A DNA stretch of 64,000 nucleotides from Arcobacteraceae bacterium (GTDB lineage Bacteria; Campylobacterota; Campylobacteria; Campylobacterales; Arcobacteraceae). Position numbers and translations under genes: made by a program. Position 1 is the first letter of the stretch. Each line of letters begins with the position of its first letter. Shown here piece after piece: positions 6,646-53,875 of the stretch. The DNA lies in contig JBLWVX010000010.1 in the NCBI GenBank assembly GCA_048268245.1, positions 9,961 to 73,960 of the forward strand. The letters run 5' to 3'. Below the pieces are notes generated by a model. The model saw only the letters and a list, made by a program, of their open reading frames with translations, did not search any database and was not told the DNA's origin.

Positions 6646-7038
6646 ATGAAAGACTATGATAAATGGAATAAAGTTAAAAAAGAGACTTCAAACCAAAATA
6701 ACTTCTTTACTTTTAAAGTTAGAGAAATTTATTGGCTAAAGGTTGGATATAACATAGGATATGAAGTATATGGGAAAGGAGATGACTATTTAAGACCAGT
6801 GTTAATTTTAAGAAAATTTAGCAAAGAAAGCTTCTTAGGAATTCCTTTAACAAGTTCAACGAAAAAGGATATGTTTCATTATGGATTTTATCCCCTAAAT
6901 AAAGATAAAAAGAATTATGCCATGCTGTCACAAATAAAACTGTTTTCTTCAAAAAGAATACACGATAAAATGGGTAAAATTTCTGTAGAAGATTTTAAAA
7001 AGTTAAAAGTAAATTTAAAAGAATTAATTGGATTATAA
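6646..7038 (+). CDS. PemK/MazF-family toxin (endoribonuclease fold) with no adjacent protein antitoxin
   Basis: REIYW..GYNIGYE..GKG...RPVLIL...GIPLTS...AMLSQIK..SSKR MazF-like motifs; only 75 bp upstream, no antitoxin ORF. Confidence 0.85.
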   Translation: MKDYDKWNKVKKETSNQNNFFTFKVREIYWLKVGYNIGYEVYGKGDDYLRPVLILRKFSKESFLGIPLTSSTKKDMFHYGFYPLNKDKKNYAMLSQIKLFSSKRIHDKMGKISVEDFKKLKVNLKELIGL

Positions 7039-7039
7039 A

Positions 7040-7085
7040 TACTCCCCTAAAGATTAGGGGCTTCCTGCAAGCAGGTTGGTTTGTA
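7040..7085 (-). ncRNA. Putative small RNA convergent with pemK (candidate RNA antitoxin), copy 1
   Basis: Minus strand ACAAACCAA-CCTG(CTTG)CAGG-AAG-CCCCTAA(TCT)TTAGGGG downstream of a perfect promoter; same design recurs at 52358-52400. Confidence 0.6.
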
Positions 7086-7090
7086 AGAGA

Positions 7091-7119
7091 ATTATATAAC
7101 AAAAGAATATATATGTCAA
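7091..7119 (-). promoter_or_regulatory. Perfect-consensus sigma70 promoter pointing toward the pemK 3' end
   Basis: Reverse complement reads TTGACA-tatatattcttttgtta(17 nt)-TATAAT. Confidence 0.8.
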
Positions 7120-7131
7120 GAAAGGAAAAAA

Positions 7132-8913
7132 GTGGAACTTGTTTATTTATGGATTAAAGATTATAAAAATATAAAGGAGCAAGGGTTTAATTTCTCTCCT
7201 AGGTTTGAGTGTAAATATGATAAAGATTCAAATAAGTTGACTATTGATGAAAATAAAAAGTATGTTAATATTTTTCCTGAAAATATTAATGTTACTGCTA
7301 TTGTTGGTGAGAATGGGAGTGGGAAAAGTACTATTTTAAAATATATAGCACAATATTTATCATTATTATTAACTAGAATAGATTCAATAGCACTTTCTCC
7401 AGATACTTTTATTTTTATTTTTTTTGATAAATTATCAAATAATATTTATACTGCAGGAAATGTTCTAGAAGATACTCATATAATAAATAAAACTGTATAC
7501 AAAACTTTCTCGAATAAGATAGAAACATTTAAGTCAAAGAAATATATTGATTTTTTAAAAAGTAAAAAACATGATAAAATGATAAGTCTTGATACAAATG
7601 AAAGATACAATAACTCTATACATAAACACCTTCTTAAAAAAAATTTAAACAAATTAATAAATAATTCCTTTACACTCCACTATGATTATTCTTTTAATAT
7701 GTTTACAAACTATCATAGTGAAACTAATTTTTTATCTGTGCCTAATAAGGAGTACGATATTTATCAACATCATAATTATGATAAAACTTTATTAGTTGAA
7801 CACATAATTAATAAGTCATACATTGAAAAAGAGAAAAAATACTTTGAACCAAGTAAACTCTTAATATTGTTTCAGCCACTTAAAAATCTTAAGTTTCAAT
7901 TTAAACAAAACATGAGTATTAAAGAATTTATGGTGTTTCTAATTAATAGCAGTATCTTTGAATTATTGAAAAGACAACATAGAAACTTTATCAATAATAA
8001 AAATGCTGAAAATAATCCAGAGTTATTAGACAATTTAATAACTAATAATATTAAATCAATTAAAGAAATTATAGATAATCAAACAAAACAAGTTCCCTTA
8101 GCATATCAACTAAAAGATTTAGTTAATTATCTAAAGATATTAAAAAAAACTAATTCTTTAAACATCTTTTCAATTGATAAAGAGTATGAGAGGATAAATA
8201 TAAATATTAATTATCTTAATGATAATAACATTAAACTTTTAACACAAATTCCTACTGATATATTAAAGCTAAAAATTTATTCAGATAATTTTGATTATGA
8301 TGATTTAAGTAATGGAGAAAAATCAGCTCTTAGAATAAGATTTTATATTGAAAGAGCAATACAAAATAGCAAAAGAGACAATTATTTTATTTTACTTGAT
8401 GAAGCTGATAATGAACTACATCCGCAATGGCAAAAAAAGCTTATTAAATATCTATATGACATTTTTAAAAATAGAAGAGAAACTTTTCATTTTATCTTAA
8501 CTTCCCACTCACCTTTTATACTTTCAGACTTACCAAAAGAAAATATAATTTTTCTAGAAAATGGGAAGCAAGAATACCCATTTAAAGATAATGAGCAAAC
8601 TTTTGGAGCAAATATACATACCCTACTTTCCCATGGTTTTTTTATGGAAGATGGTCTCATGGGAGAATACGCAAAAGAGAAAATAAATGAAGTTATTGAA
8701 ATATTAAAGCATGATAGTTTATCTTCTGATGAAATAAAAACTTGCAAAGATATTATCTCAATAATTGGTGAGCCAATTTTACAAAAGACCTTACAAAGTC
8801 AATTAGATATGAAACTTTATCCAAAAGAAACTCAATTAGAAAAACTTGAAAGAGAACAAAGAGAAATTCAAGCAGAAATAGATGAGCTAAAGAAAAAAAA
8901 TGAAACAGATTGA
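7132..8913 (+). CDS. ABC/AAA-type ATPase, Septu PtuA-like defence protein
   Basis: Walker A GENGSGKS, signature LSNGE, Walker B ILLDEAD, LHPQWQ, TSHSPF; overlaps a downstream HNH gene. Confidence 0.8.
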   Translation: MELVYLWIKDYKNIKEQGFNFSPRFECKYDKDSNKLTIDENKKYVNIFPENINVTAIVGENGSGKSTILKYIAQYLSLLLTRIDSIALSPDTFIFIFFDKLSNNIYTAGNVLEDTHIINKTVYKTFSNKIETFKSKKYIDFLKSKKHDKMISLDTNERYNNSIHKHLLKKNLNKLINNSFTLHYDYSFNMFTNYHSETNFLSVPNKEYDIYQHHNYDKTLLVEHIINKSYIEKEKKYFEPSKLLILFQPLKNLKFQFKQNMSIKEFMVFLINSSIFELLKRQHRNFINNKNAENNPELLDNLITNNIKSIKEIIDNQTKQVPLAYQLKDLVNYLKILKKTNSLNIFSIDKEYERINININYLNDNNIKLLTQIPTDILKLKIYSDNFDYDDLSNGEKSALRIRFYIERAIQNSKRDNYFILLDEADNELHPQWQKKLIKYLYDIFKNRRETFHFILTSHSPFILSDLPKENIIFLENGKQEYPFKDNEQTFGANIHTLLSHGFFMEDGLMGEYAKEKINEVIEILKHDSLSSDEIKTCKDIISIIGEPILQKTLQSQLDMKLYPKETQLEKLEREQREIQAEIDELKKKNETD

Positions 8914-9778
8914 TTTATCTATAGTAAATGATGATTTTTTAGAAAGCTATTATAACTCTATAAATATAGAAAATATAAAAAAAGAGCTTAGTGATAGAAA
9001 ATATAAAAAAATCACTGATAATTTAGAACTTCTAATAAAAGCCGATTTAAGTGAAATTAAAAGCAAACTAAATTTATGTGATAGCTATTCATTTGAAGAA
9101 AAAAAAGAAATCAAAAAAGCTTTTAACTATTCAAACCATAGACAAAATGAAAAATTTATGGAACATTTCAAAAAGTTAAATATAAGAAGTTGCCCTTTTT
9201 GTAACAACAACTATGTATACTTTTACAAAAAAAAGAAGGATAAATATAATACAATAGCAACACTAGAACACTACTATCCAAAATCAAAATACCCTCATCT
9301 ATCTTTATCTTTTTATAACCTCATTCCTTCATGTAATACTTGTAATAGCAAGTTCAAAGGTAATGATAGTCATGAAGGAAATATACTTCATCCATATTTT
9401 GAAGATTTCAGTGAAAAAGTCAAGTTCTATATAAGCGTAAATGCACTTCCAGTAGATAAAGATATAAAATTAGAAGTTAATCTTCACACTGATGATACTC
9501 GAAGTAAAAAAACTATTGATAGGTTCCAATTAAAAGAAGTATATTCAGAACATGATGATATGGCAAAAGAGATATGGAATAAAGCACAAGCATACAATGA
9601 GTCAAGAATTGAAGAACTATATGAAAGTTTTTTCAAAGACTTAAACTATACAAAAGAAGATGTTAAAAATATGGCTTTTTGTAACTATTTACATGAAGAT
9701 GATATTAATAAAAGAAACCATAGTAAATTAACACAAGATATATTAAAACAGTTTGATTTAATAAAAGAGAATAAATGA
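8900..9778 (+). CDS. HNH endonuclease, Septu PtuB-like
   Basis: CPFCN...LEHYYPKSKYP...NLIPSCNTCNSKFK, LHPYFE. Confidence 0.82.
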   Translation: MKQIDLSIVNDDFLESYYNSINIENIKKELSDRKYKKITDNLELLIKADLSEIKSKLNLCDSYSFEEKKEIKKAFNYSNHRQNEKFMEHFKKLNIRSCPFCNNNYVYFYKKKKDKYNTIATLEHYYPKSKYPHLSLSFYNLIPSCNTCNSKFKGNDSHEGNILHPYFEDFSEKVKFYISVNALPVDKDIKLEVNLHTDDTRSKKTIDRFQLKEVYSEHDDMAKEIWNKAQAYNESRIEELYESFFKDLNYTKEDVKNMAFCNYLHEDDINKRNHSKLTQDILKQFDLIKENK

Positions 9779-10623
9779 TTAAAATAGATATAAAAAAGCA
9801 ACTACATGGACAAATAGGTAATATAAACCTAGATGTAAACTTACAAATACAAAAAGGTGATTTTATAGCCCTTGCAGGTAAAAGTGGCAGTGGTAAGACA
9901 ACTTTACTTAGAATACTTGCAGGATTAGAAAGTGCCAGTGGTAATATAGAAGTAAACGGCGATACATGGCTTGATGATAAAACAAGTCTAGCAGTTCAAA
10001 AAAGACAAATAGGTTTTGTTTTTCAAGATTATGCTTTATTTGAAAACATGAGTGTTTTACAAAATCTACTTTATGTAAATAAAGACAGAGATTTAGCTTT
10101 TAAACTACTTGAACTAACTGATTTAAAAAATCTTATAAATAGATACCCAAATAGTTTAAGTGGAGGTCAAAAGCAAAGACTTAGTATATGTAGAGCTATG
10201 ATGAAGAAACCAAAACTTTTATTACTTGATGAGCCACTATCAGCCCTTGACCCTAAAATGAGAAATAGTTTGCAAGATGAGATACTAACTCTTCACAAAG
10301 AGTTTAATACTACAACTATTATGGTAAGTCATGAACCAAGAGAGATATATAAACTAAGCAATAGAGTTATTTTACTTGAAGATGGGAAAGTATTAAATGA
10401 TGGGAAACCTAAAGATGTACTTTTAAAAACACAAGGTTCTCAAAAATTCTCTTTTGAGGGAGAAATACTTGATATTATAAAAGTTGATGTGGTAAATATA
10501 GCTATTATTAGTATAGGACAACAACTTGTTGAGGTAGTTTTAAGTAACCAAGAACTTAAAGACCTAAAAGTTGGTTCTAAGATAAATGTAGGGACAAAAG
10601 CCTTTTCCCCTATCGTAAAATAG
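9775..10623 (+). CDS. modC: Molybdate ABC transporter ATP-binding protein
   Basis: GKSGSGKT, FVFQDYALF, LSGGQKQR, LLLDEP, C-terminal TOBE-like region; mod operon context. Confidence 0.9.
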   Translation: MIKIDIKKQLHGQIGNINLDVNLQIQKGDFIALAGKSGSGKTTLLRILAGLESASGNIEVNGDTWLDDKTSLAVQKRQIGFVFQDYALFENMSVLQNLLYVNKDRDLAFKLLELTDLKNLINRYPNSLSGGQKQRLSICRAMMKKPKLLLLDEPLSALDPKMRNSLQDEILTLHKEFNTTTIMVSHEPREIYKLSNRVILLEDGKVLNDGKPKDVLLKTQGSQKFSFEGEILDIIKVDVVNIAIISIGQQLVEVVLSNQELKDLKVGSKINVGTKAFSPIVK

Positions 10624-45723: not shown

Positions 45724-46977
45724 ATGAATATTGTTAATATTGGATTTTTTAGGGTATGAATAAAAACATGTCATTATTAACAATTTTTTTGATTTTAATA
45801 GCAGTTTTCTTAACAAGGTATTATCCAATTAAAAATGCAGATTTTTTTACACATATTAGAGAATATCTAAATCCTTTTTTAGAATGGTATTATGTACTTT
45901 TAGTTGCTTTTTTACTCTTTTTTATGCTTTGGCTTGGTATGAAGGTATAGAAATATAAAACTTTGAGAAGACTTAGAACAACCTGAATTTACTTTTTTTT
46001 CTTGGTTTTTTATTATTTTGCAGCAGGAACAGGTGTGGATATTCTTTTTTGATCAGTAGCACAAGCATTAATACAATTTCAAGAAAATCCTTTTACAGGT
46101 ACACAAATGACACCTGAAGCTGCAATTAAAGGTATAAGTGTGGCATATTTTCATTAAAGATTAAACAGATTAATGATTGATAATATTGTAGATGTCCTAG
46201 CAGTTATTGGTACAATTTTTGTTATTACAACAACTCTTGGGCTAAGTATTGAACAAATGAACACAAGATTAAAAGAACTATTAAAGATTAATACATCAAC
46301 AACATTACAAATTAGAGTTATTGTAGTTATACAGTTGATAGTAACAATGTCTGTACAATCAGGGCTTAACAAAGGTGTAAAACTACTTTCTGTTGGAAAC
46401 TTTTACTTAAGTATCATAGCTTTAGAATTTTTGCTTATTTTTAGGGATGGTGGATAGCTAGGTATTCATTTGTTGGTATGTTTATTGCAAGAATTTCTAG
46501 AGGAAGAATATTTGAAGAATTTGTAGCTGGTCTACTTTCAACACCTACTTTAATTACAATAATTTGGATTGGTTTATTTGGTGGTACTGCTCTTTATGAA
46601 GAGCTTTTTTGCTAAAAGATATTGTAACTGCTGCAAATAATGATGTATCAGGTTCAACAAATCCTCCATCACTTCATAGAGCATTATGGAAAGTTATTCT
46701 TACGCTATTAACTGGTGTACTTATAGTAGCAAGAAGTGTTAAAACACTCCAAGCAGCAGTAATTACAGCATTATTGCCTTTTTCAGTTATTATCATTATT
46801 ATGATTGCAGGACTTTTAAAAAGTCTAAGTTTAGAAAATACTGCTGTAAGATCAGGAAATGAAATTTTAAGTGCAAGAGAACTATGGATTATTGAAAAAG
46901 ATGTGGATGAAGAAACTACGATAATTAATGAACTAAACCCTAATATCAAAAAAATAGAAGAGCCTGAATATAAATAA
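45724..46977 (+). pseudogene. Decayed BCCT-family (betaine/choline/carnitine) transporter
   Basis: Fragments in several frames: PEFTFFSW, FAAGTG, GLNKGVKLLS, GWWIA..FVGMFIARISRGR, LQAAVITALLPF; multiple stops, frameshifts and missing segments. Confidence 0.88.
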
Positions 46978-51894: not shown

Positions 51895-52204
51895 GCTTAA
51901 TCCTTAGTAAATAAGTAAAGTTTATAAAAATTATATTATGATGTAATGATAACACATTTAGATTAAATTTCTTTGACTTGAATCAATAATAATCTTGATA
52001 AATTCTATATACTTTTATTTATTTGTAATACTATTCAATTGGGTTATTATTATAAATTTTAGATATATCATAAATATCACTTCGATAACTTTTTCTAATT
52101 TATTTTCAAATTCACTATTACCATTTTCATTTACTCTATGTTTTAAATGAAATAAAGCTACATTTTTATTTATATCTTCTACATTATCTGTGTTTATTGA
52201 ATAG

Positions 52205-52310
52205 TTATAAAACTGCTAAATGTTCATAATCTTATAAGATTTTGGCTTCCTAGCTTTAGAAGTTTTTCCCTTGGTTTGTCTATATTTTCAAGTTTTTTTA
52301 TACTACTCAT
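52205..52310 (-). pseudogene. radC: radC (UPF0758) N-terminal remnant
   Basis: MSSIKKLENIDKPREKLLKLGSQNL, then after a frameshift DYEHLAVL and a stop; matches the RadC PREKL...ELLA start. Confidence 0.75.
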
Positions 52311-52323
52311 GACTATACCTTAT

Positions 52324-52352
52324 TTGACAAAAATATTTTACTATGTTATGAT
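52324..52352 (+). promoter_or_regulatory. Near-consensus sigma70 promoter pointing toward the 3' end of the deleted pemK
   Basis: TTGACA (52324) + 17 nt + TATGAT (52347) with extended -10 TG. Confidence 0.75.
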
Positions 52353-52357
52353 TTTTT

Positions 52358-52400
52358 ATAATTCGCCTACGGGCACACCCACTTTTTTAAGTGGGGCTAA
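52358..52400 (+). ncRNA. Putative small RNA convergent with the pemK remnant, copy 2
   Basis: ATAATTC-GCC(TACG)GGC-ACA-CCCACTT(TTTT)AAGTGGG; same two-hairpin layout as 7040-7085. Confidence 0.6.
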
Positions 52401-52500
52401 TTAAATCTTTAGACTTACTAATCACTATTTTAAAATCATTTGTATTTGTAGTTTTTTTGATGACATTCCAATCATCAAAAGTTTGCGTGAGTGTTTTCAT
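52387..52500 (-). pseudogene. Internally deleted PemK/MazF-family toxin (37 aa)
   Basis: GGAGG RBS; MKTLTQTFDDWNVIKKTTNTNDFKIVISKSKDLISPT joins equivalents of the N-terminus (YDKWNKVKK) and C-terminus (EDFKKLKVNLKELI) of the 6646 protein. Confidence 0.75.
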
Positions 52501-52561
52501 AAACTCCTCCTATATAGAAGAAGTTTATCTAAATTTTTATAATAATATTATAAGTTATATA

Positions 52562-52765
52562 TTAGTTTTTATTTTCAGTAGTGAAGATAAGTTTTGCTTC
52601 ATCTAAAAGCTTTTGAGCCTCATCTAGTTCTTTCATTCCATTTTTATATACATCTAGTGAATCACTTAGTGTGATTTCTGGATTTGAAAGTTTATCTAAA
52701 AGATTTTTTGCTTTTATTATTTTGTCTTCAAATACTAATTTTTCTTCTTTTATTTCTTCGCTCAT
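52562..52765 (-). CDS. xseB: Exodeoxyribonuclease VII small subunit
   Basis: FEDKI...LSDSLDVYKNGM...LDEAKL; follows metX. Confidence 0.88.
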   Translation of the reverse strand: MSEEIKEEKLVFEDKIIKAKNLLDKLSNPEITLSDSLDVYKNGMKELDEAQKLLDEAKLIFTTENKN

Positions 52766-52768
52766 TTA

Positions 52769-53875
52769 TTATTTTCCTTTTAAAATATCTCTTACATGGT
52801 CTTCAAACTTCTCAACCTCAACTAAGAATGAATCATGTCCAGATTGACTATCAACCATTTTATAAGTTACTTGATCTTGCTTTCCAAGTTTTATCATAAT
52901 ATCTCTTATCTCTTCCATCTCTTCAGGGAAGAAAAGCATATCATCTTTAAAAGATATAAGATGTAAATTACACTTTACTTTATCAAAAGAGTCTTCTAGT
53001 TTATCTTTATTTCTTCCTGCATCAAAAATATTCATTGTCTTACAGATATAAAGATATGATAGTGGGTCAAAAAACTTAGGAAAACTATATGAGTTATATT
53101 CTAAGTATCTCTCAACTTCAAATCTACCAAATAGTTCATATAAACCATCAGTTCTAGCATACTCTCTACCGAACTTAGTATTAAAAAGTTCTGGACTTAA
53201 ATATGCTATTAAACCTGCCATTCTTCCTATTGCTAAACCTGGTAAACCTTGTGCTTGTAAATCATCTGGGTCATAAAAACCATCTTTGAAAGCTGGGTCA
53301 TGTCTAATTGATTCTATTGCTATTTTATTTATGGCAATTGCCCAAGGTCTTGTATAAGCAGTAGTTGCCATAGCTATAACTGTATCTGTAAAATCAGGTT
53401 GTTCTATAGAATAACAAAGTGCTTGCATTCCACCCATAGAACCACCAATAACAGCTACAGCTTTTTTAATCCCAAGTCTATCATAAAGTCTCATTTGAGC
53501 TCTTACAACATCTGAAATAGTAAGTATAGGAAACTTAAATCTATACTCTTTTCCAGTTGAAGGATCAATACTTAGAGGGTTTGTAGACCCAAAAGTACTT
53601 CCTATGTTATTTGAACAAATAACAAAATATTTTGTAGTATCTATTACTTTACCATCACCTATAAACTTATCCCACCATCCAGGCTTTGCTTCATTTGCAT
53701 ATCTTCCTGCTGCATGATGTGATCCTGCTAGTGCATGACAAATTACAATAACATTTGATTTATCCTCATTTAGCTCTCCATAAGTCTCATATACCAACTC
53801 AAAAGACTCTAAAATCCTACCACTTTCTAAATGTAAAGGTTCATCAAATTTTTCAGTTTTAGTCTCTATTCTCAA
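52769..53875 (-). CDS. metX: Homoserine O-acetyltransferase
   Basis: CHALAG, GWWD, GGSMGGMQ, GHDSFL. Confidence 0.93.
   Translation of the reverse strand: MRIETKTEKFDEPLHLESGRILESFELVYETYGELNEDKSNVIVICHALAGSHHAAGRYANEAKPGWWDKFIGDGKVIDTTKYFVICSNNIGSTFGSTNPLSIDPSTGKEYRFKFPILTISDVVRAQMRLYDRLGIKKAVAVIGGSMGGMQALCYSIEQPDFTDTVIAMATTAYTRPWAIAINKIAIESIRHDPAFKDGFYDPDDLQAQGLPGLAIGRMAGLIAYLSPELFNTKFGREYARTDGLYELFGRFEVERYLEYNSYSFPKFFDPLSYLYICKTMNIFDAGRNKDKLEDSFDKVKCNLHLISFKDDMLFFPEEMEEIRDIMIKLGKQDQVTYKMVDSQSGHDSFLVEVEKFEDHVRDILKGK

Follow-up and report, generated by a model that had tools for sequence, protein, structure and literature searches.

A gutted MazF/PemK-like toxin gene beside a preserved small RNA gene: a degenerate member of a Campylobacterales toxin/RNA module in an Arcobacteraceae genome

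Between xseB and a thiF-like gene of an Arcobacteraceae bacterium, a reading frame of 37 codons faces a promoter-like sequence and two short hairpins, which raises the question of whether this arrangement is a product of chance or the remains of a toxin gene together with its RNA partner. The window, by which we mean the whole 64,000-nucleotide stretch of DNA analysed here, is AT-rich (27% G+C), and its closest named protein relatives are Arcobacteraceae, the nearest being labelled Poseidonibacter sp. (89% identical). The original prediction, made from the letters alone, had described a promoter TTGACA-17-TATGAT, hairpins and a linker facing the frame, and all of these elements are found in their places. 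The promoter (52324..52352, plus strand) is composed of the -35 box TTGACA at 52324-29, a 17-nt spacer, a TG at 52344-45 and the -10 box TATGAT at 52347-52; with this extended -10 it reaches 11 of 12 in the promoter scan. It is followed by a predicted small RNA of ~40 nt (52359..52398, plus strand), both ends of which are taken from the homologous RNA CJpv3 described below. After a leader of 6 nt, this RNA contains hairpin A, GCC(UACG)GGC with a 3-bp stem (52365-52374, plus strand), the 3-nt linker ACA (52375-52377, plus strand), both read from the sequence, and hairpin B with the 7-bp stem CCCACUU/AAGUGGG and a 4-nt loop (52378-52395, plus strand). On the minus strand, the 37-codon frame covers 52387..52500, so that its stop codon falls within hairpin B, and a Shine-Dalgarno sequence GGAGGAG is read directly at 52504..52510. 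An alternative small hairpin, GGG-CACA-CCC, could form at 52372-52381, and likewise in many relatives, if the 3' side of the hairpin A stem paired across the linker with the 5' side of the hairpin B stem; it could be a switch or may be incidental.

What is the short frame? It had been proposed to fuse PemK-like N- and C-termini in frame, with an ACAAAT-ACAAAT tandem at the apparent junction, and a search for the undeleted allele at the xseB locus of relatives had been suggested. This allele is indeed found in the same-genus genome G058 (locus L039), where xseB is followed by an intact toxin gene, the RNA module and radC. The encoded toxin has 138 aa, ends with ...VSPT and matches the family HMM at positions 2-131 (E 5.8e-62). 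Residues 1-21 of the remnant correspond to residues 1-21 of the intact protein, while residues 22-37, which end with ...LISPT, correspond to residues 123-138; between window and G058 there is a gap of 303 nt with flanks that are 92.5% and 91.3% identical. Aligned in this way, the 37-codon frame is a MazF/PemK-like toxin gene lacking 101 internal codons, with codons 1-21 derived from the N-terminus and codons 22-37 from the C-terminus. The junction of this in-frame deletion lies at 52437..52438 (minus strand), and the tandem, codons 18-21 (52449-52438), directly precedes it and ends exactly between codons 21 and 22. What is left lacks the whole MazF/Kid barrel. Its first 24 residues still match positions 3-26 of the family HMM (E 3e-5), and its N-terminus agrees with that of copy 1, the intact toxin elsewhere in the window, in 9 of 17 residues (E 2e-4); Pfam gives no match for the 37-aa remnant alone. 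Three public runs (X1, X5 and X11) have DNA contigs with this very deletion, which hence predates the split of strains that differ by 1-2%.

With its start codon and frame retained and a strong Shine-Dalgarno sequence in front, the 37-codon ORF could also encode a functional mini-protein, for instance a dominant-negative toxin fragment, and three wild strains carry the same allele. We give this idea hardly any credence. A third of all deletions keep the frame by chance, the shared allele counts nothing because the strains are only 1-2% apart, and other gutted copies of the family retain other parts of the HMM (114-132, 3-51, 1-24 and 77-132). An antisense frame at 52391-52606, which starts in hairpin B, was considered separately as a peptide gene and rejected: in the intact allele, read by eye, this frame stops after 6 codons.

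Next to the toxin remnant lies what is left of radC, the second gene of the island. Only ~40 of its codons remain in the window (52224..52310, minus strand), namely the 28 first codons, a frameshift and ~13 more, detected by Pfam as UPF0758_N (E 5.6e-4, under the cut-off) and by tblastn with the full RadC of related loci. The frameshift base at 52234 is absent in runs X1 and X5, and X11 is at least 1065 nt longer at this place. In other genomes the interval between xseB and thiF is variable: it is empty in G057 and in several other genera, and it holds radC alone in G055. The most likely history is that a small mobile island of toxin gene, convergent RNA gene and radC settled between xseB and the thiF-like gene, and that the window lineage then lost 101 internal codons of the toxin and reduced radC to ~40 codons, the RNA gene staying whole. 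The ~200 nt from the radC remnant to the native thiF-side spacer (52000-52200) are without a match among the loci compared; they contain an open frame fragment on the minus strand, and one X5 contig matches 51991-52024 only. A divergent X11 contig (34 changes in 258 letters, side 30) has a joint 51989>52894, which we leave uninterpreted.

Could the preserved RNA gene be a chance assembly of promoter and hairpins? The pattern TTGACA-N17-TATNAT is observed three times in the 64-kb window, where 0.19 occurrences are expected, and the two modules account for two of these three. The 42-nt RNA of copy 2 folds with z = -4.0, and none of 200 shuffles folds as well. A covariance model, R1, was built from 30 module sequences, leaving out copy 2 of the window and including the G058 allele. 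Its best match in the window is copy 2 (52357-52406, 61.3 bits, E 4.5e-17), followed by copy 1 (40.5 bits, E 3.4e-10), and the best match outside the modules reaches 12.2 bits (E 0.83); in the whole genome there are three strong matches only. The R1 score, the promoter-pattern count and the fold z together rule out a chance origin. Rfam contains nothing at the gathering threshold for the window or for L002, with matches of chance level only at E <= 1, and it has no match for the RNA of the Campylobacter plasmid pVir either. An intrinsic terminator, defined as a G+C-rich hairpin plus U tract, occurs at 0 sites on either strand of 51900-52800. The RNA run X20, available as contigs only, covers the thiF-like gene and xseB/metX with none on 52100-52588, a result that speaks for neither presence nor absence of the transcript. 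By analogy with CJpv3, the orphan copy 2 RNA is probably still transcribed, as a molecule of ~40 nt that starts near 52359.

Copies 1 and 2 have the promoter, hairpin order, 3-nt linker and stem length in common and differ in sequence, which had been read as structure conserved without sequence. We aligned 75 R1 matches, 49 of them distinct, by fitting them to the model, a procedure that favours pairing. Among the 49 distinct modules, 95.0% of the cells are paired, compared with 77.7% after shuffling and 30-58% with slid partners. Cells in which both partners changed number 82 against 26.9 expected, the observed score is equalled in 0 of 500 shuffles, and in hairpin B each of the 6 pairs has varied at both partners. 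The reading obtained from two copies thus extends to stems that covary across 49 distinct modules. The same is true for the UNCG tetraloop assigned to the RNA strand: the loop of hairpin A is UUCG or UACG on this strand in 38 of the 49 distinct modules and CUUG in 4 more.

Which strand carries the functional hairpins was also addressed by other means. The promoter is conserved in one orientation only. A register-free count of internal pairs in hairpin B gives 4 G.U against 1 A.C, a weak result. The alignment-fitted count stands at 20 G.U to 6 A.C, and 4 of these 6 A.C cells belong to the copy-1 group, which was judged by eye to be out of register in the fitted alignment. Whole-sequence MFE folds oppose the RNA strand, with G.U in 10 of 534 pairs there versus 43 of 613 on the toxin strand; we consider this count to be dominated by spurious pairings of the flanks and give it little weight.

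Copy 2 had been announced as a hidden second copy. It is real, but it is not the sole extra one, as a third module is located on another contig. Copy 1 (6646..7038, plus strand) encodes an intact MazF/PemK-like toxin of 130 aa (Pfam PF02452, E 8.1e-9), and the family profile finds EndoA/MazF structures with E ~1e-5. The AF2 model of copy 1 has a pLDDT of 81.8, and the top Foldseek matches are MazF-mt1, S. aureus MazF and E. coli MazF (E ~1e-6, TM 0.63-0.70); in this model the protein has the SH3-like barrel fold of MazF/Kid. The family additionally possesses an N-terminal helix with invariant W7, N8 and K11 that is absent from canonical MazF. The small RNA gene of copy 1 (7031..7119, minus strand) consists of a promoter at 7119-7091, CCUG(CUUG)CAGG, the linker AAG and a CCCCUAA stem. 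The third module (contig C13:28110-28541 of the genome G000; L002 1495-1932) contains a toxin 43% identical to copy 1, in which the invariant Trp codon TGG, retained in the same-genus genome G056, has become TGA. Its RNA and promoter are intact (50.3 bits). With copy 2 gutted and copy 3 interrupted at this codon, only one of the three toxins of the genome is intact.

The surroundings of copy 1 show some further features. It adjoins a candidate defence pair, PDC-M62A/B (PtuA/PtuB-like; E 5.8e-107 and 8.9e-56; window 7132-10623), a mad3-like ATPase is also found beside it, and other members of the family adjoin restriction-modification genes. In another part of the window, frames at 46173-46457 and 46609-46977 match positions 175-263 and 423-483 of the profile of BCCT betaine/choline transporters and are probably one broken gene.

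Is the pairing of toxin and RNA peculiar to this genome? Of 184 genomes of the family, 64 encode the toxin, as do 48 of the 401 genomes sampled from the phylum, and multiple copies per genome are frequent. R1 matches occur in 65 of 151 family genomes. Among 47 distinct intact toxin ORFs (80 sources), 46 are faced at the 3' end by an R1 match on the other strand; only L017 is not, and there the promoter persists together with an RNA that has diverged. At every locus that we examined by eye the layout is the same: TTGAC(A/T)-17-TATAAT opposite the toxin, often with TGn, then ~6 nt, a short leader, hairpin A, a 3-nt linker, hairpin B and the toxin stop codon, the stem sequences of hairpin B being highly varied between loci. 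In other families of the order, R1 matches 11 of 22 loci (E <= 0.0034). More distant loci on the Campylobacter and Helicobacter side (L117, L118, L119 and L120) have a convergent promoter followed by three or four hairpins. The family is furthermore found in 46 plasmid records of Campylobacter, Helicobacter and Nitratiruptor, and 7 records of Campylobacter phages or prophages contain it too. Judged by these comparisons, a module of toxin and convergent RNA is general in the Campylobacterales. One hairpin of the distant members has a GAAA loop, and the RNA grew or shrank by whole hairpins.

One could argue that the hairpins are no RNA gene of their own but serve the toxin gene as a stabiliser of its 3' end or as a bidirectional terminator, that the facing RNA is a by-product, and that the real antidote is a protein, for example RadC. 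Indeed, RadC overlaps the toxin start (ATGA) in 17 of 47 loci, downstream hairpins would covary whichever strand uses them, and the whole-sequence G.U count favours the toxin strand. The upstream genes of the 47 intact toxins are heterogeneous, though, and in 30 of them, copy 1 included, RadC is absent upstream; the upstream neighbour of copy 1 is modB, 75 nt away. The promoter is as strongly conserved as the hairpins and stands at a fixed distance from them, neither strand has a U-tract terminator, and the homologous RNA is a discrete, abundant species of 77 nt. We consider a stabiliser with a protein antidote to be very unlikely.

RadC nevertheless deserves a description of its own. In the 17 loci a full-length radC (JAB-domain, ~224 aa) ends at the toxin start with the overlapping ATGA (L020, L019, L023, L027, L031, L032, L033, L034, L035, L067, L073, L074, L078, L081, L083, L062 and L063), and L031 and L034 contain cassettes of the order toxin-RNA-radC-toxin-RNA. 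From this gene order RadC looks functionally linked to the toxin family.

The closest experimental counterpart comes from pVir of C. jejuni 81-176. The toxin of this plasmid is 39.7% identical to copy 1 over residues 4-117 (tblastn, E 1e-15) and has the N-terminal motif F-D-x-W-N-x-x-K-K in common with the family. Its gene, the MazF/PemK-like pVir0047 (NC_008770 30634-31038), has the RNA on the opposite strand, where TTGATT-17-TATAAT and three hairpins face the toxin (L121:1889-1965). In Table S12 of Dugar et al. 2013 (PMC3656092) the small RNA CJpv3 is listed on the pVir minus strand from 31119 to 31043, with 77 nt and the entry 'Detected on Northern blot'; the same study detected it by dRNA-seq. 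When we mapped CJpv3 on the sequence, it turned out to start at a G located 7 nt downstream of the -10 box and to end 2 nt past the last hairpin, short of the toxin stop by 4 nt; it has no overlap with the toxin ORF. Because start and end match the layout of the module, we conclude that the predicted promoter type fires, yielding a discrete small RNA that stops at the last hairpin. On this pattern, RNA 2 would reach from ~52359 to ~52398. The earlier suggestion of a functional RNA gains from this an experimentally observed homologue in C. jejuni.

CJpv3 and pVir0047 resemble our module in the homologous toxin, the convergent RNA, a promoter of the type TTGAnn-17-TATAAT and a last hairpin that abuts the toxin stop. 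They differ in that CJpv3 has three hairpins and 77 nt, whereas the Arcobacteraceae form has two hairpins and ~40-45 nt, and R1 is not expected to match CJpv3; moreover, the pVir copy is plasmid-borne and intact, whereas copy 2 of the window is chromosomal and gutted. A type I toxin-antitoxin system of pVir, CjrA/CjpT, was reportedly described by Shen et al. in Mol Microbiol in 2016. Two papers that cite this system describe CjrA, in the passages accessible to us, as an antisense RNA that is the antitoxin in a type I system of pVir; cjrA is absent from the supplement of PMC7826846. As far as these passages go, CjrA/CjpT is like our module an antisense RNA antitoxin with a protein toxin, on the very plasmid that carries the homologous module. 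On this basis we think it probable that CjpT is the MazF-like gene of pVir and that the module seen here has its published homologue in CjrA/CjpT. Pfam finds no second toxin domain in 12 other pVir ORFs, an elimination that does not settle the identity of CjpT. The VirT named by Shen and coworkers could in principle be the MazF-like gene of pVir.

How would the RNA work in an intact cassette? Most probably, copy 2 is the remnant of a decayed toxin/RNA island, and its RNA belongs to a type that acts in intact cassettes as an antisense, type I-like antitoxin. The RNA gene abuts or overlaps the toxin stop, hence the toxin mRNA carries its complement and pairing is unavoidable if both are transcribed, which favours an antisense antitoxin over a protein-binding mode. 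The short, stable two-hairpin RNA would be made constitutively; fully complementary to the stretch in which the toxin mRNA ends, it would pair with this message and so lower toxin synthesis in a type I-like manner, as the accessible passages report for CjrA on pVir.

Precedents exist for this geometry. In the type I systems txpA/RatA and bsrG/SR4 of B. subtilis and par of pAD1, a convergent antitoxin RNA is complementary to the 3' end of the toxin mRNA, and the toxins are small membrane peptides. The convergent arrangement is the same here, but the toxin is a MazF-fold protein of 130-140 aa and the overlap is short, comprising the 3' UTR and last codons only. Type II MazEF/PemIK systems have the toxin fold and family in common with our module, yet the module lacks a conserved adjacent gene for a protein antitoxin and its toxin has the additional N-terminal helix. 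Databases call this toxin family type II MazF/PemK, while its sole constant neighbour is a small RNA gene. The third comparison is with type III ToxIN, which likewise combines an RNA partner with an RNase-fold toxin in a defence-island context. Here, in contrast, the RNA lies downstream and is convergent, it has no tandem repeats (Tandem Repeats Finder detects no ToxI-like array around copies 1 and 2), and the toxin fold is nearest to MazF and not to ToxN.

The main rival of base pairing is nevertheless a type III-like mode, in which the RNA binds the toxin protein through the N-terminal helix with its invariant Trp, Asn and Lys. The module keeps a precise architecture, a UNCG stem of 3-4 bp, a 3-nt linker and a stem of 6-10 bp, although antisense action needs complementarity only; the helix with W7, N8 and K11 is specific for the family; and CJpv3 does without any overlap with the toxin ORF. 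Protein binding would, on the other hand, not require an RNA that converges on the toxin stop, as seen in 46 of 47 cases, the ToxI-like repeats and a ToxN-like fold are missing, and the citing papers, in the passages mentioned, label CjrA a type I antisense antitoxin. Taken together, we regard protein binding as unlikely. If true, it would mean that a MazF toxin has an RNA antitoxin made of a single unit, without repeats.

In what order do such modules decay? The 61 distinct module contexts were first sorted into 41 intact, 12 'broken', 6 'partial' and 2 'none'. On re-reading, the 12 'broken' contexts proved to be 3 stop-free divergent toxins, 2 second RNA copies next to the toxin of a neighbour, 1 cut by a contig end and 6 truly broken toxins; among the 6 'partial' ones, 1 is cut by the end of the locus and 5 are real (window copy 2, L069, L082, L071:524 and L085). 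This leaves 59 evaluable contexts with 44 intact toxins, 13 dead or missing toxins and 2 spare RNA copies, proportions that are not population frequencies because the loci were partly chosen by RNA matches. The promoter is retained in 13 of 13 modules with a dead or missing toxin. The proposal that the toxin decays before the RNA agrees with this distribution: intact toxins have their RNA in 46 of 47 cases, and 13 of 59 modules stand beside toxins that are dead or missing.

The surviving RNA of copy 2 is most likely a relic with no toxin left to control. A different view holds that the orphan RNA is under selection, either as an anti-addiction or immunity element against incoming cognate toxins or because it cross-neutralises other copies in the genome. 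In seven pairs of dead and intact modules, promoter and RNA are identical at 606 of 621 positions (97.6%), compared with 3078 of 3250 (94.7%) in the flanks, R1 scores of orphan RNAs are as high as those of toxin-linked RNAs, and the family occurs on plasmids and prophages of Campylobacter and Helicobacter. Between copy 2 and G058 the identities are 28/29 for the promoter, 12/13 for the leader and 32/33 for the hairpins, where the one change keeps the pair, together 60/62 for promoter plus hairpins, versus 91/102 for the ORF remnants; radC-N gives 77/87. The identity excess of the orphan module over its flanks is suggestive of selection as far as alignments can tell, but the pairs are not independent, some of the divergence predates the death of the toxin, and some flanks are non-coding.

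Additionally, the -10 box, TATAAT in the intact G058 allele, is TATGAT in the window, and the orphan copy of strain X5 has A>G at 52348, position 2 of the -10, and G>T at 52372 in the loop-closing pair. These X5 changes argue against a strong constraint on the orphan RNA, and X1, X5 and X11 all have an extra T after the -10. Cross-neutralisation fares no better by calculation: for RNA 2 and the transcript of toxin 1, the sole intact toxin, the predicted duplex has -23.3 kcal/mol compared with -81.8 kcal/mol for the cognate RNA (cognate pairs range from -82 to -91), so that under base pairing RNA 2 would not act on toxin 1. With the mRNA of copy 3 the value is -40.0 kcal/mol, and this toxin is already dead. 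We therefore keep selection on the orphan as a possibility, though a doubtful one. The combined proposal, in which the small RNA would bind the MazF-type toxins of Campylobacterota through the N-terminal helix and orphans would persist because they protect from related toxins brought in by pVir-like plasmids and CJIE4-like prophages, appears to us improbable.

What is new here is the comparative picture across the order and not the kind of system. In the portion of the literature accessible to our search there was nothing on the spread in Campylobacterales, on the covarying two-hairpin form or on orphan copies. The cases of a dead toxin with a surviving RNA, together with the strict linkage of intact toxins to the RNA, give comparative support for an RNA antitoxin that is order-wide and goes beyond one C. 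jejuni plasmid, and they correct the expectation that these toxins are orphans. R1 at the same time provides a working RNA model of a family that Rfam lacks. Direct tests become accessible, of base pairing versus protein binding as well as of the protection that an orphan might give against incoming plasmids or prophages.

Several smaller observations concern the toxin ends and the module borders. Three gutted copies (L068 and L069 compared with L020, and the window compared with L039) retain the last ~10-13 toxin codons beside the RNA; this could be chance, or something beyond hairpin B could be required. Two loci contain tandem RNA modules 227 nt apart with one toxin (L073:1501-1550/1728-1777 and L013:697-745/924-972), and their spare RNA copies retain ~18 C-terminal toxin codons. 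Finally, the toxin domain is found at the C-terminus of a CysN-like frame of 599 aa in L111 and L113, and at the N-terminus of an epimerase/dehydratase-like or other frame in L105, L112 and L114; these long frames may be real fusions or the result of lost stop codons.
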